NCBI GenBank assembly: GCA_934120265.1
Contig: CAKOTU010000003.1
Coordinates: 1,379-65,378, forward strand
Length of the DNA stretch: 64,000 bases
Source of the DNA: an uncultured Bacilli bacterium
GTDB taxonomy: Bacteria; Bacillota_I; Bacilli_A; RF39; UBA660
Direction of reading: 5' to 3'
Within the stretch, counting starts at the first letter, position 1. Each line of letters starts with the position of its first letter. The translations under genes were made by a program, and so were the position numbers. Shown here one piece after another: positions 6,200 through 38,551 of the stretch. The notes under the pieces were generated by a model, which ran no database searches, was not told the origin of the DNA, and saw nothing but the letters and a program-made list of their open reading frames with translations.

Positions 6200-6285
6200 G
6201 CCGGTATGATGGAATTGGTAGTCATGCTTGACTCAAAATCAAGTGGGTTCTACCCGTGTCGGTTCGAGTCCGACTACCGGTACCA
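6200..6285 (+). tRNA. tRNA-Leu (anticodon CAA), long variable arm, encoded CCA
   Basis: Acceptor gccggta / taccggt, anticodon stem cttga/tcaag with loop ctCAAaa, T-arm ggttcgagtcc, 3' ACCA. Confidence 0.9.
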
Positions 6286-9797: not shown

Positions 9798-10580
9798 ATG
9801 AAAAATTTTGGAAATTCACTAAAAAGATTTATAAAAAACAAAAATACAATTACGATTTTAGGTGTACTTGTTATTGTAGGTTTACTTTATTTTGGGTATA
9901 CTTATCAAATAAATACACAAGTAAAACCTGTTAGAGTAGCGGTTGCTTCAACAACTATTCAACCAAGAACATTGATTAAAGACGATATGGTTACTTATGT
10001 TGAGGTTCCACAATCAGCAATCACAAGTAATGTAATTAGATCTTCTGCAGCAATTGTAGGACAATATTCAAATTATAATACAATTATTCCTGCAGGAAGC
10101 ATGTTTTATAAAGAAACTGTAATTAGTGCGGATGAATTACCAGATTCTGCTTTTGTTGATGTTAAAGAGGGTCAAAGACCTTATCAATTCCCAGTTAGTA
10201 TGGAAAGTACTTATGGAAACTCTATTTTCCCTGGTAATAGAATTGATATTTACATGAAAGCCGTAGATGATCAAGGACAAGTAATGGTTGGAAAATTACT
10301 TGAGAATGTAGAAGTATTAGGTGTAAAAGATAGTAGCGGTAAAAACGTATTTGAAAACTCTGAAGAAAATCGTACACCAGCATATTTAATATTTGGTGTA
10401 TCAGAAGAAATACATTTATTATTAAGAAAGGCTGAATACTTATATTCATATTCAGTAGAACTATTCCCAGTACCATATGGTAGTGTAGCGCCAACTGAAG
10501 GAGATACAAAAGTTAGTACAGAATATTTAAGAAACTTTATTAATTCTAAGACTGTAAATTTACCTACAGAAGGAGCTTAG
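9798..10580 (+). CDS. cpaB: Flp pilus assembly protein CpaB/RcpC-like
   Basis: 260 aa. N-terminal TM, SAF-like segment (VAVASTTIQPRTLIKDDM), C-terminal beta-rich domain. Sits directly before the CpaF-like ATPase. Confidence 0.7.
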   Translation: MKNFGNSLKRFIKNKNTITILGVLVIVGLLYFGYTYQINTQVKPVRVAVASTTIQPRTLIKDDMVTYVEVPQSAITSNVIRSSAAIVGQYSNYNTIIPAGSMFYKETVISADELPDSAFVDVKEGQRPYQFPVSMESTYGNSIFPGNRIDIYMKAVDDQGQVMVGKLLENVEVLGVKDSSGKNVFENSEENRTPAYLIFGVSEEIHLLLRKAEYLYSYSVELFPVPYGSVAPTEGDTKVSTEYLRNFINSKTVNLPTEGA

Positions 10581-10583
10581 TTT

Positions 10584-11747
10584 ATGGAAGAGTCAGTTTT
10601 CTCTCAAATAGACTTTGGACCATTAACACAGTATTTACAGAATGATGATGTTACAGATATTTCGTACAGTAATGGGGGGCAGATTTGGTTAAAGACGCTA
10701 TCTCATGGTATATTTAGAATAGAAAATCCAAACATTAATAATGCTTTTATGGAGAAGTTAGCATTTCAATGTTCTAACGTAATGGGTACAACATTTAATA
10801 TGGCTCATCCTTTCTTGGATGCAGAGAGTGCTGAATTACGTTTGAACTTTGTTCACGATTCCATAGCTAAAAATGGAGTAGCAGCAGTTTTACGTAAAAC
10901 TCCTGCGAAAATAAGATTACAAAAAGATAAAATTATTGCAGAAAACTATATTACAATTGAAATACATGATTTCTTGATGAAATGTGTGCAAGGACATTGC
11001 AATATTCTAGTGTGTGGAGAAACTGGTTCTGGTAAAACAGAATTTGTTAAATACTTAGGGGCTCATATTGCAGAAAATGAAAAGATTATCACAATTGAGG
11101 ATACCTTAGAGTTACACCTTGATAGAATATTCCCACATCGTGATATAGTGGCGATGAAAACAAATAATATTGCATCTTATTCAGATGTATTAGTAACTTG
11201 TATGCGTCAGAACCCTAAATGGATATTACTATCCGAGGTTCGTAGTGCAGAAGCTGTTATGGCAGTTAGAAACTCAATTTCTTCTGGACATAACATTTTA
11301 TCAACAATACATGCTGATAAAGCAAGTTCAATTCCAATGCGTATGTATAGTTTGCTAGAAACAAATCAAGATGTAGATCAATTTGTTAAAACAATTCATA
11401 GATATGTACAACTTGGAGTTATGATAAGAGGATATCAAAGTAAACAAAGTGGTAAGTTCGTACGTGAAATTGGTGAAGTTTGTGAGTTCTATGTAGATGA
11501 AAAAACAAATGAAGCTAAGACTAATTCTATTTATAAAAAAGGTATAGATGGAAAAGTATATCGTAGTAATCCAACCAAATATTTACTCGATTATTTATCT
11601 GCTCAGGGTGTAATAGTTGAACCTGATGCAATAGTAAAAGAAGAAGACAATGATAAAGAAGAAACTATAAATAATAATATTAATAACGCTGTTAAAGATA
11701 ATGAAGATGTTATTGATATTAAAGATGATGATATTATTTTTGAATAG
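10584..11747 (+). CDS. cpaF: CpaF/TadA-type secretion ATPase (VirB11 superfamily)
   Basis: 387 aa. Walker A VCGETGSGKTE, Asp box ITIEDTLEL, Walker B ILLSEVRSAEA, His box GHNILSTIHA. Confidence 0.85.
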   Translation: MEESVFSQIDFGPLTQYLQNDDVTDISYSNGGQIWLKTLSHGIFRIENPNINNAFMEKLAFQCSNVMGTTFNMAHPFLDAESAELRLNFVHDSIAKNGVAAVLRKTPAKIRLQKDKIIAENYITIEIHDFLMKCVQGHCNILVCGETGSGKTEFVKYLGAHIAENEKIITIEDTLELHLDRIFPHRDIVAMKTNNIASYSDVLVTCMRQNPKWILLSEVRSAEAVMAVRNSISSGHNILSTIHADKASSIPMRMYSLLETNQDVDQFVKTIHRYVQLGVMIRGYQSKQSGKFVREIGEVCEFYVDEKTNEAKTNSIYKKGIDGKVYRSNPTKYLLDYLSAQGVIVEPDAIVKEEDNDKEETINNNINNAVKDNEDVIDIKDDDIIFE

Positions 11748-11758
11748 GAGGTATATAT

Positions 11759-12661
11759 ATGGAATTATTTATATTTATAGCAATAGCACTAATAATAATT
11801 TTTATTTTAGTGTATAGAAAAAATTCTGGACAAAGTGCATATAAATATATAATTAACACAGTAAGTGGTGTATATAATAAATATGCTCCTTATTCATTTA
11901 AGCATGTAAGAGAAAAAGTAAAAGAATTGGGACAAGAATATACCCCAAAACAATATACAACGCAAGTATTAATATTTGCTGCGGGAGCTTTTGGAGTATC
12001 ATATTTATATTTTTATAACATAATTATTTCAATTATATATGCTCTTTTTGCTGTAGCAACAGTGCCATATCTTGCTTACTTACGTTGTAAAAGATTATAT
12101 AGTGAGTTTATATTTGAACAAGTTCAAGTATATACAACTAATACAATAATGGAATTTGCTACAACACAAAGTTTTGTTAAAGCATTAGAGGGTGTATATC
12201 AATCAGACGTTTTAGAAGATCCTTTTAAGAGTGATGTTAAAGTAATGATTGATATGGCTTATCAAAATGGTACAATTGAACAATCACTTGAATATATGAA
12301 TTCAAAGTATGATTATTATGTTATAAGAAATATGCATCAGTTATTCTTGCAAATAACTAATGAAGGTGCGAAAGATTCTAGTGAAGCTTTAGAGAATATG
12401 TCATTAGATATAGATATGCTTGTTGAAAATGTATATCGTGATAGAATTGATAGAGCAACATTCCATAAAAAGTTCTTACAATTTGGGTTTGTACTTTATT
12501 TAATGGTTATGTTAGTACAATTTTTATTAGGGGTATCAACCTATATAACGATGTTAGATCAAATAGGAATTAGGTTATTATTACATGGAATCCTAATTAT
12601 TAATACATATTTCTTACTTAATGGAGAAAAATATTATAATGAGAATGTAGGTGCTGAATAA
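11759..12661 (+). CDS. tadB: TadB-like platform protein (T2SSF-type)
   Basis: 300 aa. N-terminal TM, central cytoplasmic domain and C-terminal TM pair. Position after the ATPase. Confidence 0.55.
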   Translation: MELFIFIAIALIIIFILVYRKNSGQSAYKYIINTVSGVYNKYAPYSFKHVREKVKELGQEYTPKQYTTQVLIFAAGAFGVSYLYFYNIIISIIYALFAVATVPYLAYLRCKRLYSEFIFEQVQVYTTNTIMEFATTQSFVKALEGVYQSDVLEDPFKSDVKVMIDMAYQNGTIEQSLEYMNSKYDYYVIRNMHQLFLQITNEGAKDSSEALENMSLDIDMLVENVYRDRIDRATFHKKFLQFGFVLYLMVMLVQFLLGVSTYITMLDQIGIRLLLHGILIINTYFLLNGEKYYNENVGAE

Positions 12662-13449
12662 TGTTGATGACGTTTGTACTTATAGGAATTATTATTATCG
12701 TTATTCTCCATGTAAATAAAAAAATAGATTCTCATAGATTTATTACAGAAACTCAACCATATTTTGCATTTCTAAAAGAAGAAGATTACGAGTTTTTACT
12801 AGGTGTTAAATATGGAGATAATATTGACGTAAATAAATTATTTGGAACGAGAGTTAGAAATGCTTTAGTTGCCCTTTTAGCTGTTTTTGTTATTTTAATT
12901 AATAAAATGAATTTTATGTACTTTATTTTATGTTTAATAGCAGCATTTGCTGTGTTTAAAATGCCATATATGCAATTAAAATCATTTTATAAAAAGAACC
13001 TTTATACAATAGATTTAATGTTACCATATTACTTAAAGAGTTTGGAAATATTAATTCAACACTATACGGTTCCTGTAGCGTTACGTAGAAGTATTGCTAC
13101 TGCACCTGCAATTTTTAAAGATGGACTGGTTAAATTAGTTGAAAAAATTGAAGCTGGTGATTCATCTGTTGAACCTTATATGGATTTTGCAAAAACATAT
13201 CCAGTAAGAGATTCAATGCGTATGATGAGACTTTTATATCGTTTAGGTCTTGGTTCACAAGAGGATAAACAAGAACAATTATTAATGTTCTCTAAAACAA
13301 TATCTTCATTACAAAATAAAGCTCGTGAACAAAAATATAAAGATAGATTAGAAGGTATGGAAAAGAAAACAATGACTATGTTAATGTGTACAGGAGCAGG
13401 TATTATTGTACTTTTACTACTTTCAATGATGCAAATGATTAATATTTAA
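12661..13449 (+). CDS. tadC: TadC-like platform protein (T2SSF-type)
   Basis: 262 aa. Same topology as the tadB-like gene. Its start overlaps the upstream stop (TAATG). Confidence 0.55.
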   Translation: MLMTFVLIGIIIIVILHVNKKIDSHRFITETQPYFAFLKEEDYEFLLGVKYGDNIDVNKLFGTRVRNALVALLAVFVILINKMNFMYFILCLIAAFAVFKMPYMQLKSFYKKNLYTIDLMLPYYLKSLEILIQHYTVPVALRRSIATAPAIFKDGLVKLVEKIEAGDSSVEPYMDFAKTYPVRDSMRMMRLLYRLGLGSQEDKQEQLLMFSKTISSLQNKAREQKYKDRLEGMEKKTMTMLMCTGAGIIVLLLLSMMQMINI

Positions 13450-13478
13450 TTGTTTCATTATGAAAATTGTGTTATAAT
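13450..13478 (+). promoter_or_regulatory. Internal promoter in front of the Flp-like pilin gene
   Basis: TTGTTT (13450-13455), 17-nt spacer, TGtTATAAT extended -10 (TATAAT 13473-13478), then a strong ggagga RBS. Confidence 0.5.
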
Positions 13479-13507
13479 TAATTCGTAAGATAGAGGAGGA
13501 ATAATTT

Positions 13508-13723
13508 ATGAAAGAAGCTGCTGGAGAAGCAAATATGACTGTAATTACAATTGTTTTAATCGCTATTGTCGCTGCTGTTGCTACACCACTTGTTACTAAC
13601 ATGGTAAATAATAGTGCAGATAAAGCATGTTGTAATAGTTTAGGTGGATATGTAGAAGGAAGTACTTGTATAATTAAAGGTGGAAATAAACAAGTTAGTG
13701 GTCTACGTAGTCAATGTAAGTAA
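13508..13723 (+). CDS. Flp-like small pilin candidate (Cys-rich)
   Basis: 71 aa. Short charged leader MKEAAG, then EANMT plus a hydrophobic helix (VITIVLIAIVAAVATPLV), comparable to the Flp G/xxxxEY class. Five Cys in the C-terminal half. Confidence 0.45.
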   Translation: MKEAAGEANMTVITIVLIAIVAAVATPLVTNMVNNSADKACCNSLGGYVEGSTCIIKGGNKQVSGLRSQCK

Positions 13724-13757
13724 AAAATTTATAAGTAAGCTTTAAGGAGATATTGCT

Positions 13758-14192
13758 ATGAAGGAAAGTATTAGTTATACATTTTTGTTAGATATAATTA
13801 TAGTTTTTATAGCTATATCTTTTTTTGCTATTATAAGTATTATGAGTTATAGTAAGGCTTATCGTGTTAATAGTAAGATTGTTAATGCTATTGAAATAAA
13901 TGAGGGATACAATAAGTATGCCACTGAGAAGATAGAACAAACAATAACTAGTTATGGATATCAAAGAATATCCAAGGTTTGTCCAAAAAAAGATGGACAA
14001 GCTGCTATTAACACAGATACTAATAATAGAACTAGTGATGGTGTTTGTATTTATATGTTTGATAAAACTAAAGAAGATGGAACATATTGGTATGGTGTTT
14101 TAACTTATATGAGTTATGATTTTCCTATCATTGGTAATTTAATTAGAATACCAGTTTATACAAAGACTATGACTATGCATTATATGGGATAG
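13758..14192 (+). CDS. TadE/TadF-like pseudopilin candidate (paralog 1)
   Basis: 144 aa. N-terminal hydrophobic helix. Shares blocks with 14203-14634 (IIIVF, SYSKAYRVNSKIV, VCIYMFD, PIIGNLIRIPV). Confidence 0.4.
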   Translation: MKESISYTFLLDIIIVFIAISFFAIISIMSYSKAYRVNSKIVNAIEINEGYNKYATEKIEQTITSYGYQRISKVCPKKDGQAAINTDTNNRTSDGVCIYMFDKTKEDGTYWYGVLTYMSYDFPIIGNLIRIPVYTKTMTMHYMG

Positions 14193-14202
14193 AAGGTGTA
14201 AT

Positions 14203-14634
14203 ATGAAGGCTGCTACTGGAAATGCAATGTTAATGAATATAATTATCGTTTTTCTTGTTATCGTAATGGCTTTACTTGTTACATCTATAAGTTATACTAA
14301 GGCATTTCGTATTAAAAATAGAATTGTTGATATAATTGAGTATTACGATGGTAATTTCGATGATGCTGGAACTAAAACTAATATAACTAATGAAATTAAT
14401 AATAGTTTGAGTAGCGTTGGATATAGATTAAGTGGTTCTAACAAATGTAAAGTAATAGATAATAAAAAAGCAATTCAATTGGATTCTAATTATCAAGTGT
14501 GTATATATGAATATGATAATTCTACTAGAGGAAAATATTATAAAGTTATCGCTTATATGTATTTTGATGTACCTGTAGTAGGAGGTATTTTAAATATTCC
14601 TGTTAGTGGAGAGACAAAAGTATTTTACGATTAA
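14203..14634 (+). CDS. TadE/TadF-like pseudopilin candidate (paralog 2)
   Basis: 143 aa. Leader MKAATG-NAMLMN resembles that of the Flp-like gene. Paralogous blocks SYTKAFRIKNRIV, VCIYEYD, PVVGGILNIPV. Confidence 0.4.
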   Translation: MKAATGNAMLMNIIIVFLVIVMALLVTSISYTKAFRIKNRIVDIIEYYDGNFDDAGTKTNITNEINNSLSSVGYRLSGSNKCKVIDNKKAIQLDSNYQVCIYEYDNSTRGKYYKVIAYMYFDVPVVGGILNIPVSGETKVFYD

Positions 14635-14645
14635 GGAGGTAAAAC

Positions 14646-15617
14646 ATGAATGTTATTGTAGCAAACAAATATAAAGAAATGCTATCGAATTTAGATATTG
14701 AAGTAATAAGAAGAATTGATGGTGTATTTCCTGCAGATGAAATAATAAAAGAGTTTCAAAATTTCTTTTTCAATAAAATGATTCTTGATATAACTGCTAT
14801 AGAAGATTATCAAGATATAAAAAACATTCAAAAATTATCTATTGCTCTTGATATGAGTAAAGTAATATTACTTTTAGATAATAACCCAGCAACAACAAAT
14901 CCACAATATTTATCTAGATTAATATCAATGGGAATATATAATTTTACTACTAATCAAGAAGGTTTAATGTATTTGTACAATAATCCAAATAGTTATCGAG
15001 ATGTTGCACAGTATCAACAATTTGAACAAGCCGCTGTTGACGGTCAACCTAAAGAAAGAATTATAACTAGGTATGAGACTGTTGCACAAGCTCCTGTTCA
15101 ATATGGACCTAAGATTATAGGTATTAAAAGTGTTACACAACATTCTGGAGCAACAACATTAACATATATGATGTATAAACAATTAAAACAAAATTATCAA
15201 GTGTTGCCAATTGAAATTGATAAAAGAGATTTTGTTTATTACAATGATAAAGAAATGATTTCAATAGATGGCAATCTTTTATCTAAGGTTATAAATGAAA
15301 ATATGAATAAAGAAGCTATTATTATTGATATCAATAATAACGCTTCAGCAGAAACTATGTGTCAACAAGTTCTATATTTGGTAGAGCCATCTATCATTAA
15401 ATTAAATAAACTTGTTATGACAAGACCTGCGGTATTAAATGAATTAAGAAATAAAACGGTTATTTTAAACCCTAGCATGTTGAGTGAGAGGGACATAGAT
15501 GATTTTGAATATGAATCTAAATTAAAAGTATTCTTTAATATGCCACCAATCGATGATCATAAAAGAAGTGATGTATTAAATGAATTGTTGCAAAAACTTG
15601 GATTTAGCAGACAATAA
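14646..15617 (+). CDS. tadZ: TadZ/CpaE-like protein (receiver-like N-domain plus degenerate ParA/MinD-like domain)
   Basis: 323 aa. N-terminal alpha/beta receiver-like region, then IIGIKSVTQHSGATTLTYMMY where a deviant Walker A (KGGxGKT) would be expected. The Lys residues are missing. Confidence 0.5.
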   Translation: MNVIVANKYKEMLSNLDIEVIRRIDGVFPADEIIKEFQNFFFNKMILDITAIEDYQDIKNIQKLSIALDMSKVILLLDNNPATTNPQYLSRLISMGIYNFTTNQEGLMYLYNNPNSYRDVAQYQQFEQAAVDGQPKERIITRYETVAQAPVQYGPKIIGIKSVTQHSGATTLTYMMYKQLKQNYQVLPIEIDKRDFVYYNDKEMISIDGNLLSKVINENMNKEAIIIDINNNASAETMCQQVLYLVEPSIIKLNKLVMTRPAVLNELRNKTVILNPSMLSERDIDDFEYESKLKVFFNMPPIDDHKRSDVLNELLQKLGFSRQ

Positions 15618-15630
15618 AATGTAAATAGTA

Positions 15631-15659
15631 TTGACAAAATATAACAAATAAAGTATTAT
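15631..15659 (+). promoter_or_regulatory. Promoter upstream of the tandem VirB2-like genes
   Basis: TTGACA (15631-15636), 17-nt spacer, TATTAT (15654-15659), followed by a gaggaggg RBS. Confidence 0.55.
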
Positions 15660-15684: not shown

Positions 15685-16041
15685 ATGTTTATATTAGAAG
15701 ATGTAGTTTGTGGTGGTGGAATTCTTACTATGGATAGAATAATTCCAGACATGACAAGCTTAATTGTAACTTTAATTAAAATAGGAATTCCTGTATTATT
15801 GATTGTATTTGGAATGTTAGATTTAGGAAAAGCTGTAATGGCACAAAAAGAAGATGAAATAAAGAAATCACAACAAATGTTCTTTAAAAGAATCTTATCA
15901 GCAGCATTAGTATTCTTTGTAATTGTTATCGTACAATTAGTATTTAATTTAGTTGCAAAAGATCAAAATGTTTGGGATTGTGTTAGCTGCTTTGTAAGTG
16001 GTGTAGCAGAAGATCATAAAGCAAATTCTTGTAGAAAGTAG
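15685..16041 (+). CDS. VirB2/TrbC-like two-helix hairpin protein (pilin-like), small paralog 1
   Basis: 118 aa. VVCGGG motif, TM1 (LIKIGIPVLLIVFGML), basic loop (DLGKAVMAQKEDEIKKSQQMFFKR), TM2, then WDCVSCF. Position directly before the VirB6-like gene. Confidence 0.5.
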   Translation: MFILEDVVCGGGILTMDRIIPDMTSLIVTLIKIGIPVLLIVFGMLDLGKAVMAQKEDEIKKSQQMFFKRILSAALVFFVIVIVQLVFNLVAKDQNVWDCVSCFVSGVAEDHKANSCRK

Positions 16042-16051
16042 GTAATATTTG

Positions 16052-16387
16052 ATGACTTTAGCTACTTACGTAGGTTGTGGTGGAATAATACCACATATGA
16101 ATTCAACTATTCCTCGTTTAACAAGTTTAGTTGTCGATTTAATTAAAATTGGAGTTCCAGTATTATTGATTATATTTGGAATGTTAGACTTAGGAAAAGC
16201 TGTAATGGCACAAAAAGAAGACGAAATAAAGAAATCACAGCAAATGTTCTTCAAGAGACTTTTATCAGCGGCATTAGTATTCTTTGTGTTTGTAATTGTT
16301 GAATTAGTATTCAATATAGTTGCAAGAGATGAAAAAGCTGGTATTTGGAATTGTGTTAATTGCTTTATAAACAACCAATGTTCATAA
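16052..16387 (+). CDS. VirB2/TrbC-like two-helix hairpin protein (pilin-like), small paralog 2
   Basis: ATG 16052. Core almost identical to paralog 1 (LIKIGVPVLLIIFGMLDLGKAVMAQKEDEIKKSQQMFFKR), ending WNCVNCF. Confidence 0.5.
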   Translation: MTLATYVGCGGIIPHMNSTIPRLTSLVVDLIKIGVPVLLIIFGMLDLGKAVMAQKEDEIKKSQQMFFKRLLSAALVFFVFVIVELVFNIVARDEKAGIWNCVNCFINNQCS

Positions 16388-16407
16388 AACATAATAAAAT
16401 GCTAAAA

Positions 16408-16440
16408 AATAATAAATTCTTATTTATTATTTTTTTTTTA
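16408..16440 (+). terminator. AT-only hairpin terminator or attenuator after the pilin-like pair
   Basis: aataataaat-tctt-atttattatt followed by a run of 9 T. The stem is all A/T, so strength is uncertain. Confidence 0.4.
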
Positions 16441-16516: not shown

Positions 16517-18553
16517 ATGGTATCATTGTTATTCTTGTTTATTAAACAATTATTTTCTTTTATTGATAAAATGGTTATTTTTGTTATAAAATATTTATAT
16601 CAATTAATTGTTGCAATTGCAGATACAAATGTTTTTGGTAATTTAATTTATGATTATTTGGGAAGAATTTATATGTTCTTGTCAGTTTTTATGGTATTTA
16701 AGTTGTCAATATCAATTATAAATTATGTTATAAATCCAGATGCACTTTCTGATAAGAGTAAAGGGTTTGGTAAATTAATAACAAATGTAGTTATCTCTTT
16801 GATATTGTTAGCAATAACACCTAACTTATTTAACATGGCTTTTAACTTACAAACAGATATTTTGAATAGTAATGCAATCTATCAAATTATTACGGGTAAA
16901 AAATTAGCGACTGTAACTAAAAAAAACAATGAAAAGACATTAACATTATATGAAAACGCAAGAGCTAGTGCAGAACAAATTGCTTTTGGAGTTTATAGTG
17001 GTTTCGTTTATCAAGTAGAAGGTGAAGATAGTGACGATCCTTCTAAAACAGGAGACGCATTTGGTGCGTATTGCGAAGAAAAAGATGTTGCAAATGGTTG
17101 CGGAAAAACAGTTAACGGAAAGTTTGTTGAGCATGTTTGTGGGAATACAACATGTTTACTTGATGGCGATACAGTAACTAATTCAAATAATAAGTACTGG
17201 TGGTTGATTTCAACTGCTTGTGGATGTGTAGTGGTATACATTCTTTTAGGATTCTGTATTGATACAGCAGTTCGTAGTGTAAAATTAGGATTCTTACAAA
17301 TAATTGCTCCTATTCCAATTATGCTTAGAATGGATCCAAGTGGTAAAGATGATAAATTTCAAAAGTGGTTACAAGAAACTATAAAAACTTTTATAAGTTT
17401 ATTTATAAGATTAGCTGCTTTATTCTTTGCAACAGAAATAATAAGAACAGTAATGACTCCAAACAATGGGACTATGACTTCCTATGCTGGTGCTACTCAA
17501 GTTGGTGGTGGAGGACTAACTGGAGTCTTTGTACAAGTGTTTATCGTAATAGGCTGTTTATTATTTGCTAAACAATTCCCACAACTACTTAGTGATATAT
17601 TAGGAATTAAATTAGATGGTGATGGATTTAGCCTTAAGAAGAAAATGGGAGGTATTCCTGGTTTAGGTGCTGCTAAGGTGATAGGCGCTGGAGCTCTAGG
17701 CTTTGCTGGTGGAGCTGCAGCTAACGCTTATGCTGGAATTAAAGGTTGGGATAAAACAAAAGGTTTTTGGAGTAATGCCAATCGTTTAGGTAATAGTATG
17801 GCTACAGGAGCATTTAGTGGTGCTTTCAGAGGTGCTAGATCAAATGAAAAAAATATGTTTAAAGCAGCTGGTGCTGGAGTAAAAGGCTCTGTTGATGCTA
17901 GAAACTTAAGAGCTGAAAGAAATGCAACTGGCGATGGTGGAATAAAAGGCTGGGGTTCTAGACGTATTGCTGGACTTGATAAATTTGCAGGTGTGACAAA
18001 TGATGATACTGCAAAAATAGCTGCACAAAGACAATTTGGTGAGGACTTATGGAACAAAGTTAATTCTAAAGCGAAAGGATACGAATCAAAATATTCTATG
18101 GGCGGTAATATAGGTTCTGATTTTGGTAAAGCATGGAAGACGGCTGATGATGCCAAAGATTATAGAAATAAAATTAATTCACAATTAAGCATGGCTAGAA
18201 GTGATTTTCAGGCTGGAAAAGAAATAAGCTGGGGTGATAAAAAAGGAGCTGCTGCAATAGCTGCTTTAGAGGTAGAAAGTGCTAAAGCATCAGCTGCATA
18301 CGATAAGGCATCAGCCGACTTTAAAGAATTAAGAAGTATGCAGGAACATAAAACTGAGGCTACATATTATGATGCTTATAACGCTGCAGATGATAGACAC
18401 AGTGCTGAAAGCTACGCTAACAAGACGGTTACTGAATACTCATCATCAGACTCTCCTGCTTCAGCTCCTCAACATGGTCCTAATGGCAAAGGTGATCCTG
18501 TTGCTGGAAGACCAAATCCTAATACAAGTCGAAAAAAACAAAGAAGAAGATAA
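16517..18553 (+). CDS. VirB6/TrbL-like polytopic membrane protein with long Gly/Ala-rich C-terminal extension
   Basis: 678 aa. Multiple TM helices over the first 370 aa or so. Placed between the pilin-like genes and VirB3/VirB4. C-terminal 300 aa or so is G/A/K-rich low complexity. Confidence 0.6.
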   Translation: MVSLLFLFIKQLFSFIDKMVIFVIKYLYQLIVAIADTNVFGNLIYDYLGRIYMFLSVFMVFKLSISIINYVINPDALSDKSKGFGKLITNVVISLILLAITPNLFNMAFNLQTDILNSNAIYQIITGKKLATVTKKNNEKTLTLYENARASAEQIAFGVYSGFVYQVEGEDSDDPSKTGDAFGAYCEEKDVANGCGKTVNGKFVEHVCGNTTCLLDGDTVTNSNNKYWWLISTACGCVVVYILLGFCIDTAVRSVKLGFLQIIAPIPIMLRMDPSGKDDKFQKWLQETIKTFISLFIRLAALFFATEIIRTVMTPNNGTMTSYAGATQVGGGGLTGVFVQVFIVIGCLLFAKQFPQLLSDILGIKLDGDGFSLKKKMGGIPGLGAAKVIGAGALGFAGGAAANAYAGIKGWDKTKGFWSNANRLGNSMATGAFSGAFRGARSNEKNMFKAAGAGVKGSVDARNLRAERNATGDGGIKGWGSRRIAGLDKFAGVTNDDTAKIAAQRQFGEDLWNKVNSKAKGYESKYSMGGNIGSDFGKAWKTADDAKDYRNKINSQLSMARSDFQAGKEISWGDKKGAAAIAALEVESAKASAAYDKASADFKELRSMQEHKTEATYYDAYNAADDRHSAESYANKTVTEYSSSDSPASAPQHGPNGKGDPVAGRPNPNTSRKKQRRR

Positions 18554-18570: not shown

Positions 18571-18891
18571 ATGAATCAATTTTTGATACCAGCAAACTCA
18601 AAGAAGTCAATGTTAATCTTTGGTTTGTTCAATGTAACTGATTTGATAATATTTGGAACTGGGATAGCGGTAACATTAATTTTGTTACCGATTCTCCCTA
18701 TTAGTAATTGGTTGTTTGCAACGATCGCTGTGGCACCTGCTGCAGTAACAGGATTTCTTGTATTTCCTATTGCAAATTATCATAATGTAAGAACTTTTAT
18801 TAAATCAATGTGGAATTTCTACACTAGTAGAAGAGTTTATTATTGGAAAGGTTGGTGTTTTAGCAATGGCGAAGAAAAAGCCGATAAGTAG
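18571..18891 (+). CDS. VirB3/PrgI-like small membrane protein
   Basis: 106 aa with two TM helices, immediately upstream of and overlapping the VirB4 N-terminal ORF. This is the typical Gram-positive T4SS arrangement. Confidence 0.5.
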   Translation: MNQFLIPANSKKSMLIFGLFNVTDLIIFGTGIAVTLILLPILPISNWLFATIAVAPAAVTGFLVFPIANYHNVRTFIKSMWNFYTSRRVYYWKGWCFSNGEEKADK

Positions 18892-19414
18892 ATATACTGT
18901 TGATAATATTCCTATCAAGAGTATAACGAATGGAGTTATTATTTTAAATAACAATTTAAAAGTTACAGGGATTAAGATAATGCCTAGAAATATTTTTATC
19001 TTAGATCAAGATATGCAAGATAGTATTATATCTAATTTAAAGAATGTATATAATATGATTGATTATGAATTTTGGGTTATAGCTGCTGATAGACCAGTAG
19101 ATATAAATGTTTATTTATCACAATTACAACTTTTATATAACAATGTTCAAGACAATGCTAGAAGAAAATTAATTGTAGATGATATTAATAAAGCTAATAT
19201 GTTTATGAGCAATAATGTTGTTGATACTGAATACTACTTATTGTTTAAAGAAAAGGATTCAGAGTTAATTCAAAAGAGAATTCGTACATTGATTAATAGT
19301 TTTGCTGGTGCAGGGTTAACTTGCAGGCAAACAACAAATGATGATTTAAGAATTATTCTTGATAATTTCTTAAATGGTGGACAAACTACTACGTTTGGGA
19401 CGGTGATGAGTTAA
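18866..19414 (+). CDS. VirB4-family ATPase, N-terminal domain encoded as a separate ORF
   Basis: 182 aa. The PIKSITNGVIILNN…IKIMPRNIFIL pattern matches the N-terminal domain of Gram-positive VirB4 (PrgJ/TcpF-type). The stop overlaps the next start (TAATG). Confidence 0.6.
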   Translation: MAKKKPISRYTVDNIPIKSITNGVIILNNNLKVTGIKIMPRNIFILDQDMQDSIISNLKNVYNMIDYEFWVIAADRPVDINVYLSQLQLLYNNVQDNARRKLIVDDINKANMFMSNNVVDTEYYLLFKEKDSELIQKRIRTLINSFAGAGLTCRQTTNDDLRIILDNFLNGGQTTTFGTVMS

Positions 19415-21198
19415 TGGATGTTAAAGCACAAGTAGCGCCTAAGGGTTTAGAATTTAGAGCAAGTGATTTTGTTATTAGTGATAAATGGGCAACTATATTA
19501 ACTGTTGTTTCTTATCCAAAATTTATTGGTCCAGGTTATTTGGCATCTTTAACTAGTATGTCTGGGATTAAGGTGGTTATTAAACATATTCCTCTACCAT
19601 TTAGTGTTATTACTAAGATGTTAAATAAGGAAATAGCTGATTTAAAGCAAAGATATCAAGAAGAAAATGATAAAACTATTCAAGAGAGGATTCGTCAAGA
19701 TTATGAATCATTAGAGTATTTTATTCAACAATTAGCTTCAACTCAATCTAAAATATATGATTTTCAAATGCATATTATGGTAACTGCAGATTCTGAAGAA
19801 GAATTAGTTAATAAAAAAATGCAAGTTAAGAACTATTTAGAAGCTATGGAAATGAGAGCATTCCCATTACGCTTTGAACAAGAAAAAGTTCTTAAATCAA
19901 TTTTACCTATATATAGTAAGCAAGATATTGAAGATAGAATAGGTACTCCTATTCCAGCTCCAACAATTGCGGCTATGTATCCATTTATTTTTGATAGTAT
20001 CAAAGATCCAGGATTATCTACATTATTAGGTGTTGATTTCTCTGGTGGTGTTATTCTATTTAATCAATTTTTATATCAAATAAAGAAAGAACATAATAGA
20101 AACAACGCTAACTTAATTATATTGGGTACTTCTGGTAGTGGTAAATCTACAGCTGCTAAATTAATGATTAGATCTCATATTCGTAATAATAATCAAATTG
20201 TTATTATTGACCCAGAGGGTGAATTTGAAGAAATGACTAAAATGTATGGTGGAGACTTTATCGATTTAGGTAAAGGTGGAGAATTTGGTATGATTAATCC
20301 ACTTGAAGTAGTAGTAGATGCAGATGAAGAAGAAATTGCACAAGGTTTGGGATATACAGTATTAACTCGTACTATTCAAACTGTAAAAGCATTCTTAAAA
20401 TACTATGATCCTAGTATTACTGAAGATACAATTAATATGTTTAGTGAAGTACTACAAGATACTTACAGAAGATTTGGTATTAGTTTTAATTCTGATTTTA
20501 CAACGTTTAAATCAAGCGATTTTCCAACTTTCAGAGATGTATATGCAACTATTGTTGGTAAAATAAGAGCAATGGTTGAAAAAACACATGAACGTGATGT
20601 TTTGGAAATGTTGGAATTAAAAATTAGACCGTTAATTAAAGAATTGCAATACTATTTCGATGGTCATACAACAATATCTCCAAAGAGTGATTTTATTGTA
20701 TTTAATATAAGAGAGCTTATGAATGCAGATTCTAACATTAGAAATGCTTTATTCTTTAACGTATTAAAATATGCATGGGGATTAACACTTGATTCAAGTA
20801 TTAACACTGTATTAATGGTTGATGAAGCTCACGTTTTATTAAGTGGAAATAACACTTTAGGTGCTGATTTCTTAGCACAAGTTCAAAGACGTGCTCGTAA
20901 GTATAACACAGGTACAATAATAATTACACAACAGCCTAGTGACTTTAGTGATCCAGGTGTTATAACTCAAGGTAAGGCTATATTTGACAATGCTTCTTAT
21001 TATCTTGTGATGGGACTTAAGAAACAAGCTGTTGAAGATTTGGCTAAATTAATTGATTTAAATGATAACGAAAAAGAAAGTATAAAAAAATATAATCAAG
21101 GTGAAGCATTATTTGTTTGCGGTAGCCGAAGAATGAGAATAAACATAATTGCAACAGAACAAGAATTAGATTCATTTGGTTCTGGCGGTGGTTTATAG
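19414..21198 (+). CDS. virB4: VirB4-family conjugation/T4SS ATPase, C-terminal ATPase part
   Basis: 594 aa. Walker A LGTSGSGKST, Walker B VLMVDEAHVLL, plus FIVFNIREL and IIITQQPSDF blocks typical of VirB4/TraE. Confidence 0.85.
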   Translation: MDVKAQVAPKGLEFRASDFVISDKWATILTVVSYPKFIGPGYLASLTSMSGIKVVIKHIPLPFSVITKMLNKEIADLKQRYQEENDKTIQERIRQDYESLEYFIQQLASTQSKIYDFQMHIMVTADSEEELVNKKMQVKNYLEAMEMRAFPLRFEQEKVLKSILPIYSKQDIEDRIGTPIPAPTIAAMYPFIFDSIKDPGLSTLLGVDFSGGVILFNQFLYQIKKEHNRNNANLIILGTSGSGKSTAAKLMIRSHIRNNNQIVIIDPEGEFEEMTKMYGGDFIDLGKGGEFGMINPLEVVVDADEEEIAQGLGYTVLTRTIQTVKAFLKYYDPSITEDTINMFSEVLQDTYRRFGISFNSDFTTFKSSDFPTFRDVYATIVGKIRAMVEKTHERDVLEMLELKIRPLIKELQYYFDGHTTISPKSDFIVFNIRELMNADSNIRNALFFNVLKYAWGLTLDSSINTVLMVDEAHVLLSGNNTLGADFLAQVQRRARKYNTGTIIITQQPSDFSDPGVITQGKAIFDNASYYLVMGLKKQAVEDLAKLIDLNDNEKESIKKYNQGEALFVCGSRRMRINIIATEQELDSFGSGGGL

Positions 21199-21227: not shown

Positions 21228-23468
21228 TTGAATAATAAAAATATAGTTGGTAATGGCAGTAAAGCAACATTACCAGGTGGTCAAAAATTATCTGATAAGA
21301 TTCAAGAAAATAAAACAAAACAAAGTTTAAATAACAATATTAATGGTAGTAATCTAAATGAAAATGTTGATGCTACTAAATCTTCCAAGGGTAACGAAGA
21401 AAATGGTGAAAATAAAAAAAGTAAATTAGATAATGTTACACAGCAGGCAGGAACTGAAGCTGCTCGTACTGCGCTTAAAGCGTTTGCAGCTTCAGCGCCA
21501 TATACAGCTTGGATACCTAAGGGAATAAGAGATAAAATTGTAGACAAAGTAGTAGATAGTAAACTTGGACAAGAAGCAATTGAAAAACAAGGTAAAAAAT
21601 TAAAGAGGAAAGTTGTTCTTGCTTTGGTAGGAGCTGTTGGAGCAACTCTTTTGCAAACGTTTCTAATTTGTGCTATTGTGGCAGCTATTTTGAGTCCAGT
21701 AGCGGCAATAAAAGATGCTTTAGGGAATGTTGGAGATTTCTTTGTAAGTGTTTGGAATATTTTTAGATATGGAGAGTTTTGTTCTAGTGAAGAAGCATGT
21801 CAAGAAAAATTAAGTAACAAGTACTATGAAAAACTTGACTCTAAGGTTGAAGATGCTTTTGGAAATTGTGAACAAATAGATACACAACAAGTTAAAGATT
21901 TAATTACAGGTACTATTTTTTACGATCAAATGACTTATGATTCTAAATATCAAGATTATCAAGGTAAATCTGATGACTCTAAAAAAGATGATAATGCCGA
22001 AGATGATGATGCTGGGGATGATTCACTGGTAGAAACAAATAAAGGCGGTTATTTTGACTATCGTGGTAAAAGGGGAAAAATTGGAGGTTTGGTTGATAAG
22101 TTAAAAAGTGGTGATTCAAATAGCTGTATATTGAATTCTTATACCTACCGTAATCATTTAACCAACAAGTATGTAGAAGAAAATTATGGCTATGTTTTAA
22201 TTGGACATTATAAAGATGATGTAGAAGGTAAGTTAACAATAGATGAAGTTGTTAATGAAATAATGATGATAGGTGGATTTGAAAATAAAGGTTCAAACGG
22301 TAGTTGTTCAAGTTCTTGTTCATATAATATTGATGGCGAATCAATAAGTGAATTAAAAGTTAGATTAATTAACGGTGTGTATTCTGATTCACCTGGAACA
22401 CCTATTGAAGGTGAGGAGTTAGTTCCTTTCGAAAAATATATTTTAGGTGTAGTATATGCTGAAGTTGGAAGTGGAGCTGCAGATGAGGTACTTAAAGTTC
22501 AAGCTATAGCTGCCAGATCATTTGCCCTTAGTAGAGCAAAAGTTATGGGTGGCGCTTTAGGTAGAGGAATAACTCAAGAAGATGGTGTATGGATTTTAAC
22601 ATTAGTTAACTCAACAGAGGATCAAGTTTATTGTGATCCTGATAGAGGCTGCTCGAAAGAAAGTGGTGTTAATTCTACTGTTTATTCTGATCCTGATAAG
22701 TATGAAAAATATAAGGGTCCATTATCCGCAGATGAAAGAATTCGCTCTGTTGTAGCTGAGGTAGCTGGTAAAGTTGTTTTAGATGCAAATGGTCAAATTA
22801 TAAATACTGGTTATAGAAGTACAAATCAGAATAGTTGGGCAGAGAAAGCCGCTGAAGGTAAAGATTATACAGTTATTTTAAGAGAAGATTATCCTGATTT
22901 CAATACTATTGATGATGGAAATTGTTCTTCATTATGTAGCTTGGCAATAGGACCTTTTACAGAATGGAAGCAAACGAGTTGGCCTGATGTATATATGAAT
23001 AATCTTAGCCTTGCAAAAGCTGGATGCTTAACTGTATCTGTTTGTATGCAACTAGCAAGAAGTGGTGTTGCCCCAGCTTTAGAAGGTGGTTTTAACCCAG
23101 CAACATTTGTTAATGCATATAGAGAAAAGTTATACAATGGCCAGGATGAATGGGCTTGGAATGGAATATCAAAAGTAGTACCGCAATTTCAATATGATTC
23201 TAGTTATAAATTAACTGGTATGCAAGGTCTGAGTGATGAGGAGCAACGCAATAGATTAATGAAAGGTATTAATGCTGGTTGTTATTATGTTGTAGAAGTA
23301 AAAAGCTACTATAAGGGTCAACACTGGGTTGCTGTAGATACAATAAAAGACGGTGAAATATATATTATGGATCCATCTTCAAACTGTAAAATTTTAAGCC
23401 AATGCGTAGCTAGTACTGGTGCTAAATATCGTATAAGTATAGCACAGTGTTATAGAGTAGTTAGATAG
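21228..23468 (+). CDS. T4SS-associated cell-wall hydrolase: TM anchor, SpoIID/LytB-like domain, C-terminal Cys-His peptidase-like domain
   Basis: 746 aa from TTG start after a ggtggtga RBS. SpoIID-like block YILGVVYAEVGSGAADEVLKVQAIAARSFAL. C-terminal AKAGCLTVSVCMQLA … GQHWVAVDTIKDGEIYIMDPS resembles C39-like/CHAP-type papain folds. Confidence 0.65.
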   Translation: MNNKNIVGNGSKATLPGGQKLSDKIQENKTKQSLNNNINGSNLNENVDATKSSKGNEENGENKKSKLDNVTQQAGTEAARTALKAFAASAPYTAWIPKGIRDKIVDKVVDSKLGQEAIEKQGKKLKRKVVLALVGAVGATLLQTFLICAIVAAILSPVAAIKDALGNVGDFFVSVWNIFRYGEFCSSEEACQEKLSNKYYEKLDSKVEDAFGNCEQIDTQQVKDLITGTIFYDQMTYDSKYQDYQGKSDDSKKDDNAEDDDAGDDSLVETNKGGYFDYRGKRGKIGGLVDKLKSGDSNSCILNSYTYRNHLTNKYVEENYGYVLIGHYKDDVEGKLTIDEVVNEIMMIGGFENKGSNGSCSSSCSYNIDGESISELKVRLINGVYSDSPGTPIEGEELVPFEKYILGVVYAEVGSGAADEVLKVQAIAARSFALSRAKVMGGALGRGITQEDGVWILTLVNSTEDQVYCDPDRGCSKESGVNSTVYSDPDKYEKYKGPLSADERIRSVVAEVAGKVVLDANGQIINTGYRSTNQNSWAEKAAEGKDYTVILREDYPDFNTIDDGNCSSLCSLAIGPFTEWKQTSWPDVYMNNLSLAKAGCLTVSVCMQLARSGVAPALEGGFNPATFVNAYREKLYNGQDEWAWNGISKVVPQFQYDSSYKLTGMQGLSDEEQRNRLMKGINAGCYYVVEVKSYYKGQHWVAVDTIKDGEIYIMDPSSNCKILSQCVASTGAKYRISIAQCYRVVR

Positions 23469-23479
23469 GAGGAAAGAAA

Positions 23480-24253
23480 ATGAGTAAAAAACAAATATTT
23501 CTTTTATGTATAGTAGTAATTGTTATTATAGCGTTAGGTTCTTTCCTCTTTATAAAAACAGAAGAAAAAAAATCTTACAGTTTATATTTATTTACTGGTG
23601 AGACAAAAATGGTTAAGTGGTATTATAACGATAGTAAATGGTATATAGTTAATACTAATGAGAAGTTGTCTGATCCATTTGATGTATACAGTAATGGTAA
23701 GTATGTAGGAAACTATGATTTAGTTTATAATAATAAATGGTATTATTTTGATGAGTATAATAAAAATGTTCAAATAGATGGTATAAAATTTATGATTAAT
23801 ACAAACTATAATTTTACCTCTTATGCATTTAATGTGGATTATAAAAAAAATGATGATTTAGCTGAGAAGCTTGCTGATCAGTTAAATATAAATTATAATA
23901 AATTTACTTATAATTTAAAAACATTTAAAATTTCAAATAATAATAAGTTAGAAACAATATATGCTGTTGACTTTTATGAAAAAGATGATGAGTATGCAAG
24001 TTTTGGACCTAGTTATACAGCCGTTTTTAATATATTAAATAATAAAATAAGTATTATAAAATATTTGGAATTTTCACAATCTAATAAAGATTATTGTAGT
24101 TTGAATGTAGATGGTGTATTTAGATTTGAAAATGATAATAATAAAATTTTATTATCTTGTACATATTTTGATCAAATACCATCGGATTATTATCTTTATG
24201 AAAGTAATAAAAATAATTATGAATTAATTGTTGATAGTAAAGGAGGGGTATAA
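23480..24253 (+). CDS. Membrane-anchored Asn/Tyr-rich protein of unknown function (T4SS accessory candidate)
   Basis: 257 aa. One N-terminal TM and an ectodomain of about 230 aa. Located between the hydrolase and the coupling protein. Confidence 0.55.
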   Translation: MSKKQIFLLCIVVIVIIALGSFLFIKTEEKKSYSLYLFTGETKMVKWYYNDSKWYIVNTNEKLSDPFDVYSNGKYVGNYDLVYNNKWYYFDEYNKNVQIDGIKFMINTNYNFTSYAFNVDYKKNDDLAEKLADQLNINYNKFTYNLKTFKISNNNKLETIYAVDFYEKDDEYASFGPSYTAVFNILNNKISIIKYLEFSQSNKDYCSLNVDGVFRFENDNNKILLSCTYFDQIPSDYYLYESNKNNYELIVDSKGGV

Positions 24254-24254
24254 A

Positions 24255-26480: not shown

Positions 26481-27227
26481 ATGAAAGACTTTTTATTAAA
26501 TAAAAACACTGGGATACAATTTTATATGTTTAATATTACACATTTTTTTGTTTTGTTTATTACATATATTATTATGTTAATTATTCTATATAATAAGAAT
26601 AAATTAAAGAATATTAGCGATATAAACAAAAAAAGAATAAGAATATTTTTTGGTATTATACTTTTAATTTCATGGATAATTAGACGCGGCTCTTTTATTT
26701 ATTATGGCGTCTATAATATAAAAAATCATTTGGATTTAGGCTTTTGTAATATAAATGCTTTATTATTTATGTTTTATTGTTTAACAGGTAATAAAAAGGT
26801 GTATAGATTTTGTTATTATTCCACATTTGTTGGACCACTGTTATCCATTTTATTTCCAGCAGTTACAACAAGCATTAACAACTATTCTTTCATAACGTTT
26901 ATAATAAATCATAACATAGTATTTTTAATGAATTTAGTATTTTGCATATTTGAAGAATTAAAACAAGATGATAATAATGTTAGAATTTTTTTCTTGATAG
27001 GATATGCTTATGTAGTTTTTACAAATATATTAGATATTGTATTTGACCTTAATTATAATAAATTAATAGGATTTATATCTAGTAAATATGTCCAAAATGG
27101 TATAGTTTTATATATATCAAATAATTTGATCATTTCACTAATTATATATTTTTTGGTTGCATCTATATGTATATTAATTGCTAATTATATATTACAGATT
27201 ATAGGAGGAAAGTATGAAAAAAAGTAA
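26481..27227 (+). CDS. Polytopic integral membrane protein (possibly YwaF/TIGR02206-like)
   Basis: 248 aa with about 7 TM helices. TGtTATAAT -10 at 26458-26466. The family call is a weak recollection only. Confidence 0.5.
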   Translation: MKDFLLNKNTGIQFYMFNITHFFVLFITYIIMLIILYNKNKLKNISDINKKRIRIFFGIILLISWIIRRGSFIYYGVYNIKNHLDLGFCNINALLFMFYCLTGNKKVYRFCYYSTFVGPLLSILFPAVTTSINNYSFITFIINHNIVFLMNLVFCIFEELKQDDNNVRIFFLIGYAYVVFTNILDIVFDLNYNKLIGFISSKYVQNGIVLYISNNLIISLIIYFLVASICILIANYILQIIGGKYEKK

Positions 27228-38210: not shown

Positions 38211-38551
38211 GGGGCTGTTTTGGCTTCGACAGGTGTTATGGATTATAAACTGCAAGTCGGAGGCACACGTTAAGTGCAACAAAAAAATAACTGGAAACAG
38301 AAACGAATTAGCTTTCGCTTAATAGATTTAGAAGGCGCTTCTTATTTATCCATTCCTACGGGATAATAAGAGGCTCGATTTAGTAGGATATATTATTATG
38401 ATGCTTATAAGTAATAATGAATTATATAAGCTTACTAATAAATTTGTTGTTAGTTACTTTATTTATTAGGACATTTTTTAACTAAATAAACTTGTAGACG
38501 TTTATATGAATTGATGCTTGGACAGGGGTTCAATTCCCCTCAGCTCCACCA
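38211..38551 (+). ncRNA. ssrA: tmRNA (SsrA)
   Basis: 5' ggggctgttttggcttcgacagg and 3' T-arm/acceptor ggacaggggttcaattcccctcagctccacca. Tag frame …GNRNELAFA with stop at 38320-38322. TGtTATAAT -10 at 38192-38200. Confidence 0.9.

Follow-up and report, generated by a model that had tools for sequence, protein, structure and literature searches.

Two-helix hairpin proteins resembling VirB2-type pilins, encoded at a chromosomal type IV secretion locus of uncultured gut Bacilli

Introduction

According to a December 2025 review, VirB2 is absent from the type IV secretion systems (T4SS) of Gram-positive bacteria, the Patescibacteria being the only monoderm exception (PMC12857230). In Patescibacteria, arrays of 2 to 11 VirB2 genes of the PF18895 type are chromosomal and belong mostly to T4SS without a relaxase (PMC12102498). 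PrgF, in turn, has been reported as an essential VirB2-like protein, the first of a Gram-positive conjugation system, and VirB2-like candidates were found on 95% of representative Gram-positive conjugative plasmids (bioRxiv 10.64898/2025.12.18.695078). VirB2-like subunits are already known in Gram-positive systems, and the family described here is a further variant. It is represented by six proteins encoded in a 64,000-nt stretch of DNA from an uncultured bacterium of the Bacilli (contig CAKOTU010000003.1, positions 1,379 to 65,378), hereafter called the window. All six carry a two-helix hairpin module, and they are, in our judgement, probably VirB2-like pilin-type subunits of a chromosomal T4SS of Gram-positive type (MPF-FATA-like), within the wider PF18895 superfamily. 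An earlier note on the same DNA had placed VirB2-type pilins outside the Gram-positive T4SS (pCF10, pCW3), a statement outdated by the PrgF preprint and by the Patescibacteria arrays. A search of the literature returned nothing specific on a T4SS in RF39-type gut Bacilli.

Results and Discussion

Six window proteins share one hairpin module

The six open reading frames (ORFs) and their motifs, which had been picked out in the earlier note, were all recovered when the translations were checked:

15685..16041, plus strand: A118, a small pilin-like hairpin protein of 118 amino acids (aa) without signal peptide; cysteines C9, C99, C102 and C116.
16052..16387, plus strand: B111 (alternatively B112), another small hairpin protein of pilin-like type, with about 70-73% identity to A118; four cysteines.
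30566..31195, minus strand: C209, with signal peptide, small-type module and a poly-Asn/Gly-rich tail; an orphan between the DUF2238 and RNase R genes.
27214..28479, plus strand: D421, with signal peptide, Cys-rich variable ectodomain and C-terminal hairpin; closes the T4SS cluster.
55438..56511, plus strand: E357, an ectodomain-hairpin fusion immediately 3' of recA.
56570..57724, plus strand: F384, a second ectodomain-hairpin fusion 3' of recA.

The second small gene most likely starts at the ATG at 16052, in agreement with the earlier note; the ORF lister gives the TTG at 16049 (hence B112). The start of the minus-strand gene is probably the ATG at 31183. A118 and B111 have no signal peptide and their ORFs are closed to upstream extension.

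In each of the six proteins the module consists of a first transmembrane helix (TM1), a conserved basic loop and a second helix (TM2), with cysteines confined to the outer flanks. When a hidden Markov model (HMM) of the six modules was run against all six-frame window ORFs with 40 aa or more, it picked out these proteins and no more (E 1e-46 to 1e-52); the next-ranking match has an E of 0.008. Pairwise BLAST comparisons separate a small subfamily (A118, B112 and C209; 36-73% identity) from a large one (D421, E357 and F384; 38-42% overall identity), the members of the latter being built of a signal peptide, a 250-320-aa Cys-rich ectodomain and the C-terminal module. Between the subfamilies, identity is about 30% across 63-73 module residues, and hhalign joins the two profiles at 98.6% probability (E 1e-15). 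Ten positions are invariant in both, in A118 numbering G43, D46, K49, D57, K60, K61, F66, R69, F77 and C99. An exhaustive profile search returned 9,935 clusters (at 50% identity) with E<=1e-3 and 6,149 with E<=1e-10; the family is large and essentially unannotated.

The C209 tail has a feature of its own: an imperfect ATT/GTT trinucleotide repeat (30638-30676) encodes 14 consecutive Asn residues, after which comes a Gly/Ser/Thr-rich end. The Asn run is possibly a length-variable spacer.

The module is related to the T4SS_pilin family PF18895

PF18895 (T4SS_pilin; gathering threshold 26.6 bits) is the top Pfam match for four of the six proteins, C209, D421, E357 and F384 (17.8-23.0 bits, with D421 at 23.0). 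The scores of all matching window proteins are 23.0, 22.9, 22.0, 17.8 and 14.4 bits, the last being a lower-ranked match of B112; the Pfam scan gave no PF18895 match for A118. Among relatives, 57 of 58 large-type proteins match PF18895 at E<=0.01; in the wider family the match extends to 72 of 126 representatives, with a best E of 7.3e-10. Precomputed PF18895.6 domains are recorded for four relatives (P0114, P0135, P0163 and P0167). The family is best placed within the PF18895 superfamily, as a divergent branch carried on a Bacillota chromosome.

A118 (118 aa) and B111 (111 aa) also have the properties by which the PrgF preprint recognizes candidates: a length of 50-150 aa, two transmembrane helices, a PrgF-like topology and a gene near virB6, for which we use the gene of a 678-aa putative VirB6 protein beginning 130 nt after the end of B111.

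The small genes stand at the head of a T4SS gene cluster

Features surrounding the two small genes are the following:

9798..15617, plus strand: Tad-like pilus genes, encoding RcpC/CpaB, a T2SSE ATPase, two polytopic proteins, a 71-aa Flp-like pilin (13508-13723), two pseudopilin-like proteins and a 323-aa protein.
15631..15659, plus strand: near-consensus promoter of the sigma-70 type (TTGACA, 17-nt spacer, TATTAT), followed by the ribosome binding site GAGGAGGG before A118.
16404..16439, plus strand: hairpin with a 14-bp stem of A/T only and a T-run, after the small genes.
16517..18553, plus strand: 678-aa protein in the VirB6 position, with six predicted transmembrane helices and a long hydrophilic C-terminal part; placed by position and architecture only.
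18571..18891, plus strand: 106-aa protein in the VirB3/PrgI position, with two adjacent transmembrane helices; placed by gene-order comparison.
18866..21198, plus strand: VirB4-type ATPase in two ORFs, of 182 aa (18866-19414) and 594 aa (19414-21198).
21228..23468, plus strand: cell-wall hydrolase with a SpoIID-like domain (domain match), in the VirB1/PrgK position.
23480..24253, plus strand: bitopic 257-aa protein with one N-terminal transmembrane helix, putatively in the PrgL/VirB8 position.
24228..26432, plus strand: VirD4-type coupling protein (T4SS-DNA_transf, 1e-53; NF045973, 286 bits, above the cutoff of 250).

The order is thus small genes, 678-aa gene, 106-aa gene, split VirB4, hydrolase, bitopic 257-aa gene, VirD4, a TMEM164-family gene and D421. 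The claim that the two small genes sit where a pilin gene is expected holds: A118 and B111 lie directly 5' of the VirB6-like, VirB3-like and VirB4 genes in the window, and so do their counterparts in 57-66 of 78 related loci (see below).

The two VirB4 pieces match NF045975, the VirB4 of Mycoplasma integrative and conjugative elements (ICE), at model positions 101-276 and 296-891, with 361 bits, below the equivalog cutoff; a Pfam P-loop_TraG match was obtained as well. Since ORFs of the same sizes occur in related metagenome contigs (L001-L004), the split is not a sequencing frameshift. The hydrolase orthologues of these contigs carry a CHAP domain in addition. The 678-aa protein is of an "extended" type, with a Cys-containing extracellular loop (about residues 170-230) and a Gly/Ala/Lys-rich hydrophilic C-terminal region of about 330 residues; it has no match in Pfam, NCBIfam or PDB. 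Neither the 106-aa nor the 257-aa protein has a family or PDB match. The gene between VirD4 and D421 (26481-27227) encodes an integral membrane protein of the TMEM164 family (Pfam E 8.5e-18). The eukaryotic TMEM164 is a lipid acyltransferase. Conjugative pili are assemblies of pilin and phospholipid, and a lipid-modifying partner would therefore be of interest.

No relaxase or integrase Pfam family was found among window ORFs of at least 100 aa over the 64 kb, and PcfG, the pCF10 relaxase, gave nothing in a tblastn search of the window.

The arrangement invites comparison with pCF10, whose order prgF-(prgG)-prgH-prgI-prgJ-prgK-prgL...pcfC equals that of the window. PrgF resembles the small window proteins in its size, its two transmembrane helices, its charged cytoplasmic loop and the location of its gene, just 5' of those for PrgH (VirB6-like), PrgI (VirB3-like) and PrgJ (VirB4). 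It differs in having no cysteine and no detectable sequence or profile similarity to them, in belonging to a plasmid-borne conjugation operon that contains a relaxase, and in that no ectodomain fusions are reported for it. When all neighbours were compared by BLAST with the Prg/Pcf proteins, the only links were those of the window VirB4 to PrgJ and of VirD4 to PcfC, each at 22% identity. In Mycoplasma ICE, a small pilin-like protein (NF045849, Mbov_0395) is likewise encoded near a VirB4 of the same subfamily, NF045975 being the best match of the window VirB4. However, NF045849 leaves only a trace in one of the six window proteins, D421 (10.6 bits, E 0.35, against a cutoff of 40 bits).

The promoter lies 26 nt 5' of A118 and, with 11 of 12 matches, is the best site between 13300 and 16800. 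In 27 of 77 related loci the first family gene has a promoter with at least 11 of 12 matches ahead of it, as compared with 2.6% of random windows. Such a strong promoter would suit abundant structural subunits, which is circumstantial evidence. Downstream of the small genes, the hairpin at 16404..16439 has a folding energy of -10.8 kcal/mol (z = -4.3; none of 200 shuffled sequences was as good) and looks like a weak terminator or attenuator. The consensus terminator scan missed it because its stem has no G-C pairs.

The small genes mark the very border between the two gene sets, their linkage to the Tad-like genes is as tight as that to the T4SS genes, and weak TadE matches are found in Pfam (E 0.04-0.14). 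The small proteins might then be part of the neighbouring Tad-like pilus and not of the T4SS, which we hold to be very improbable. The Tad set has a Flp-like pilin of its own, together with two pseudopilin-like proteins with N-termini of class III type; a hairpin of two transmembrane helices with a cytoplasmic loop is not the architecture of a type IV or Flp pilin; the TadE matches span only 19 hydrophobic residues; and A118 is preceded by a separate strong promoter. The 323-aa protein of the Tad set could not be assigned to a family.

The locus is conserved in gut Bacilli

A scan of one genome per GTDB species, biased toward A118 orthologues, found at least 459 relatives, and 78 genome loci were kept. 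The relatives are labelled as uncultured Bacilli, 'Tenericutes' UMGS, Firmicutes CAG:884 or Mycoplasmatota, with some evident mislabels, and come from human, rabbit, ruminant and chicken gut. On the T4SS side, a VirB6-like gene is present in 66 of the 78 loci and VirB4 in 57; on the Tad side, 71 loci have the 323-aa gene and 55 the ATPase, and Tad-like genes lie 5' of the small genes in 51-71. Most loci in which T4SS genes are missing have little or no downstream flank. Given these counts and the missing flanks, the Tad-plus-T4SS supercluster, with the small genes at its junction, is a conserved unit. Altogether, about 60 uncultured gut Bacilli, counted as species-level genomes, keep the arrangement, in every case beside a Tad-like pilus locus, and human gut metagenome contigs show the same synteny with ScpA/B flanking.

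The loci hold between one and eight family genes, most often two or four, small and fusion forms being mixed; 70 of the 78 hold 2-8 and the other 8 a single one. Chromosomal arrays of 2-11 VirB2-like genes near virB4, with no relaxase nearby, are the mark of the Patescibacteria type, and the present loci share several features with these systems (PMC12102498; Southlakia epibionticum per PMC12857230): profile similarity to PF18895, a two-helix hairpin, divergent arrays near VirB6/VirB3/VirB4, a chromosomal site among housekeeping genes, a VirD4 without nearby relaxase, and a separate type IV-like pilus in the genome. On the other hand, the window host is a Bacillota of the spore-former type and its proteins do not reach the Pfam threshold; the N-terminal region exceeds 60 aa in about half of the members sampled; the T4SS is physically fused to a Tad-like locus; and the odd/odd cysteine pattern presented below has not been described.

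Linkage to T4SS core genes is thus seen in the window and in 57-66 of the 78 loci; there are orphan paralogues as well, those of the window (C209, E357 and F384) lying among housekeeping genes. No PLSDB plasmid was matched by A118 or by the D421 module in tblastn searches, and the family is hence absent from known plasmids. The D421 module, the only one used in this search, had no tblastn match among INPHARED phages either, and the label 'Bacteriophage sp.' on one cluster is unsupported in view of this result.

Cysteine parity points to a disulfide across the hairpin

The cysteine pair, one on the N side and one on the C side, that the earlier note ascribed to the whole family is present in the large subfamily, where one cysteine flanks the hairpin on either side. 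The small subfamily has four conserved cysteines instead: one in an N-side C-G, two in a C-x-x-C motif and one further C-terminal residue. In 53 small-type homologues C9, C99 and C102 are invariant and C116 is kept in at least 90%.

N-termini resembling signal peptides precede the N-side cysteine in four of the six window proteins, as had been noticed before. The N side is placed outside because homologous modules come after cleavable signal peptides and large Cys-rich ectodomains. The inter-helix loops of the six proteins contain 5-7 Lys/Arg residues, with a net charge of +2 to +3, and the flanks are neutral or acidic. A hairpin with both ends outside and the basic loop in the cytoplasm, as proposed in the earlier note, fits this predicted topology, given the signal peptides, the positive loop and the restriction of cysteines to the flanks.

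In 308 sampled members D46 is invariant, R69 is present in 306 and the spacing of 23 between the two in 307. The core from TM1 to TM2 is free of cysteine in 298. In 293 of the 308, which are phylogenetically related, so that no meaningful binomial P value can be attached to the count, the number of cysteines is odd on the N side and odd again (1 or 3) in the C-terminal tail. About half of the 308 have an N-terminal region longer than 60 aa; these regions carry 3 to 17 cysteines, and the odd/odd pattern is seen in 141 of 154 such members. N-side and C-tail counts in the window are 1+3, 1+3, 1+3, 11+1, 9+1 and 7+1 for A118, B111, C209, D421, E357 and F384, respectively. If all exported cysteines are paired, odd numbers on both sides mean that at least one disulfide connects the N-side segment to the C-terminal tail. 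A parity that stays constant over such different cysteine counts is hard to explain except by disulfide pairing. The cross-hairpin disulfide that the earlier note had suggested thus gains independent support; judged from the parity, it is likely to exist, within or between subunits.

As an alternative, the termini might be cytoplasmic and the four cysteines of the small proteins a zinc site. The C...CxxC...C pattern does resemble a Cys4 metal site, and the small proteins have no signal peptide. We nevertheless regard this as highly improbable: homologous modules that follow signal peptides and Cys-rich ectodomains place the N side outside, the loop is the most basic segment, the large subfamily offers only one cysteine per side, and odd/odd parity with ectodomains of 3-17 cysteines suits disulfides and not a metal. 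The possibility that the N-side residue is a lipoprotein cysteine was also considered and rejected; the residues before it form no lipobox, and it does not follow the hydrophobic region of a signal peptide.

Other exported proteins of the locus have even numbers of cysteines, four in the Flp-like pilin (13508-13723) and two each in the pseudopilin-like proteins (13758-14192 and 14203-14634). Together with those of the hairpin family, these cysteines suggest that the lineage may rely widely on extracytoplasmic disulfides. No gene for a thiol-disulfide oxidoreductase was seen in the 64-kb window.

In T-pilin and TrbC, the two ends of the protein are covalently joined by cyclisation. The pilins of the VirB2/TrbC/TraA group (PF04956; T-pilus, RP4 and F pilus) are comparable to the hairpin family in their inferred topology, in a gene preceding VirB3/VirB4 and in their adjacent ends. 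They differ in that the ends of the hairpin proteins would presumably be joined by a disulfide, that no PF04956 or PDB match, nor a Foldseek match in a comparison of low power, connects the two, that the small window members have no leader peptide, and that the loop of the hairpin family, about 24 residues long, is highly conserved.

Fusion paralogues combine a constant module with variable ectodomains

Among D421, E357 and F384, identity amounts to 86-96% in the module, as against 31-35% in the ectodomain. The modules of D421 and F384 are separated by 13 synonymous and 2 non-synonymous codon differences. Homologues of D421 elsewhere show about 80% identity in the last quarter of the protein and little otherwise. 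The site 3' of recA holds two fusion genes and a 132-aa ORF in the window and one fusion gene in a closely related strain (L084 6001-7074); copy number at this housekeeping site therefore varies. Minor pilins of other filament systems follow the same logic, in which the assembly core stays constant and the exposed head varies. The Bartonella Trw T4SS is alike in having amplified variable surface subunits on a single T4SS, for which variable adhesion rather than conjugation has been proposed (PMC12857230). It differs in being Gram-negative and in having a VirB5 tip protein, with multiple copies of VirB2 and VirB5; in the present family the variation resides in ectodomains fused to the module.

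The hairpin could also be a general membrane anchor of secreted ectodomains that does not polymerise, with a role in secretion confined to the small T4SS-linked copies. Large-type members are indeed often orphans, situated for example behind recA or between gpr and spoIIP; the long N-terminal regions occur in about half of the 308 sampled proteins; and one member adjoins a sortase-dependent pilin, a sortase and ComK. Yet a single transmembrane helix would suffice for anchoring, whereas here the cytoplasmic loop is the best conserved part (D46, R69 and their spacing, as given above); the contrast between nearly constant modules and divergent ectodomains is that expected for co-assembly with a common partner; and fusion genes are found inside the arrays 5' of VirB6 in many loci, with D421 closing the cluster of the window. 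A mere anchor is for these reasons unlikely, and we retain pilin-type subunits as the preferred interpretation. The member next to the sortase genes is a distant one of 509 aa (P0176, in L085 1-7452). Its neighbours are ORFs of 133 and 143 aa, a sortase-dependent pilin with SpaA/TED domains, the sortase and ComK, with no T4SS genes.

Observations that weigh against a pilin role

A number of results speak against pilin-type subunits. None of the six window proteins reaches the gathering score of PF18895 (26.6 bits), whose name is itself a prediction. In the small type, PF18895 is matched by 27 of 53 proteins at E<=0.1, about the frequency of spurious matches to membrane proteins; since these matches alone are ambiguous, the assignment of the small type rests on its homology to the large type. 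PF04956 (TrbC/VirB2) was never matched in Pfam scans of 243 proteins (6 + 58 + 53 + 126). Similarity to PrgF is absent, with hhalign probabilities of 0.1-2.9% for PrgF alone and for a 23-sequence PrgF alignment, and no BLAST match between PrgF and the family; the PrgF family is a narrow one, with 32 close relatives. A profile search of PDB with the family gave chance matches only (heme A synthase, olfactory receptor) and no pilin. The AlphaFold2 (AF2) model of A118, with a β-hairpin at 5-16 and helices at 19-53, 59-90 and 94-105, is of moderate confidence (pLDDT 68), and Foldseek returned four PDB matches to it, all with E>=7 and none a pilin, in a comparison of low power for a short hairpin and run with no positive control. 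The VirB6 and VirB3 assignments follow from position and transmembrane pattern only. Large-type members in many cases stand alone in housekeeping neighbourhoods, at a distance from any T4SS gene. Disulfide formation is assumed for a strictly anaerobic gut Firmicute. Lastly, filaments have not been observed. The AF2 model of D421 (pLDDT 53) was too poor to be used for the ectodomain, and its Foldseek matches are meaningless. The kinship with VirB2 put forward in the earlier note is thus borne out by the profile relation to PF18895, but not by matches to PF04956, PrgF or pilins in PDB and Foldseek searches.

With no sequence-level link to an experimentally proven pilin, one may ask whether the proteins are factors of entry exclusion or self-recognition, their variable outer parts setting specificity, and not structural subunits of the T4SS. 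Exclusion is the work of small membrane proteins whose genes lie in T4SS loci, as do the genes described here, and the ectodomains are variable and differ in copy number among strains. This explanation is at odds with the relationship to PF18895, with the match to PrgF in position and two-helix architecture, with the strong dedicated promoter before the genes and with the presence of two small tandem copies that have no variable ectodomain at all. On balance we find it improbable, and keep to structural, pilin-type subunits in what follows.

A possible mode of working

If the proteins are pilin-type subunits, the module would enter the membrane as a hairpin of two helices, its two ends outside and its conserved basic loop (D46, K49, D57, K60, K61, F66 and R69) in the cytoplasm. 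A118 and B111, being strongly promoted, would be the major subunits, drawn out of the membrane to stack on the VirB6-like platform with the loop lining a channel. By means of their near-invariant hairpin, D421, E357 and F384, and perhaps C209, would become part of this assembly or cap it, and the fusion subunits would then act in adhesion or specificity through the variable, Cys-rich ectodomains that they display. The N-side segment would be tied to the C-terminal tail by one disulfide or more, which would staple the open end of the hairpin. Such a staple would achieve without a peptide bond what head-to-tail cyclisation does in T-pilin and TrbC.

Within the literature searched, PF18895-type arrays in Bacillota with VirB4/VirD4 of Gram-positive type appear to be new, as do the frequent fusion to large variable ectodomains and the odd/odd cysteine rule, with the cross-hairpin disulfide that it implies. 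Beside the PrgF plasmids and the Patescibacteria, the window locus offers a third line of evidence for VirB2-type pilins in Gram-positive T4SS. It bears on the question, raised with the Patescibacteria arrays, of whether their pilins were co-opted from other T4SS classes (PMC12102498). Odd/odd parity leads to a simple testable prediction, that of a disulfide in place of pilin cyclisation, and the ectodomain fusions suggest that conduit and adhesin may be united in one subunit of a monoderm T4SS. If this is true, the fusion subunits would be candidate determinants of partner specificity in abundant uncultured gut bacteria.

A more far-reaching scenario is offered tentatively, as possible but not probable. 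A large clade of uncultured gut Bacilli might keep a chromosomal, relaxase-less T4SS fused to a Tad-like locus, a design shared with the essential epibiont T4SS of Patescibacteria, and might build from it a disulfide-stapled conduit of VirB2 type. Interchangeable ectodomain pilins, some of them encoded at dispersed hypervariable sites such as that of recA, would serve as modular adhesins, and the system would act in contact with other cells or the host rather than in conjugation. The PF18895-type pilins would then be native to T4SS of Gram-positive type and not borrowed by Patescibacteria from diderm systems.

Chromosomal setting

The window is chromosomal, has about 28% G+C and belongs, by its gene content, to a Bacillota. 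Genes and RNAs around the cluster comprise those of LigA, ScpA/ScpB, tRNA-Leu, RmuC, RNase R, SmpB, tmRNA, Der, SpoIVA, CCA-adding enzyme, DnaD, a class A penicillin-binding protein, RecU, DivIVA, RNase P class B, RecA and MnmA. To judge by SpoIVA, RecU, DnaD and RNase P class B, the host is a Bacillota of the spore-former type. The RNase P RNA is of class B, the type of low-GC Gram-positive bacteria, which supports the assignment to Bacillota.

A tRNA-Leu gene (CAA; 6200-6285), of a type that is a classic integration site, is flanked directly by scpB and by the gene that opens the Tad/T4SS supercluster. Insertion of an ICE at this gene was considered and rejected: the 3' end of the tRNA gene is not repeated elsewhere in the window, there is no integrase and the GC content is uniform. 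Genes for tmRNA and RNase P RNA are found at 38211-38551 and 52743-53085; the tmRNA, about 4.3 kb 3' of smpB, encodes the tag peptide GNRNELAFA.

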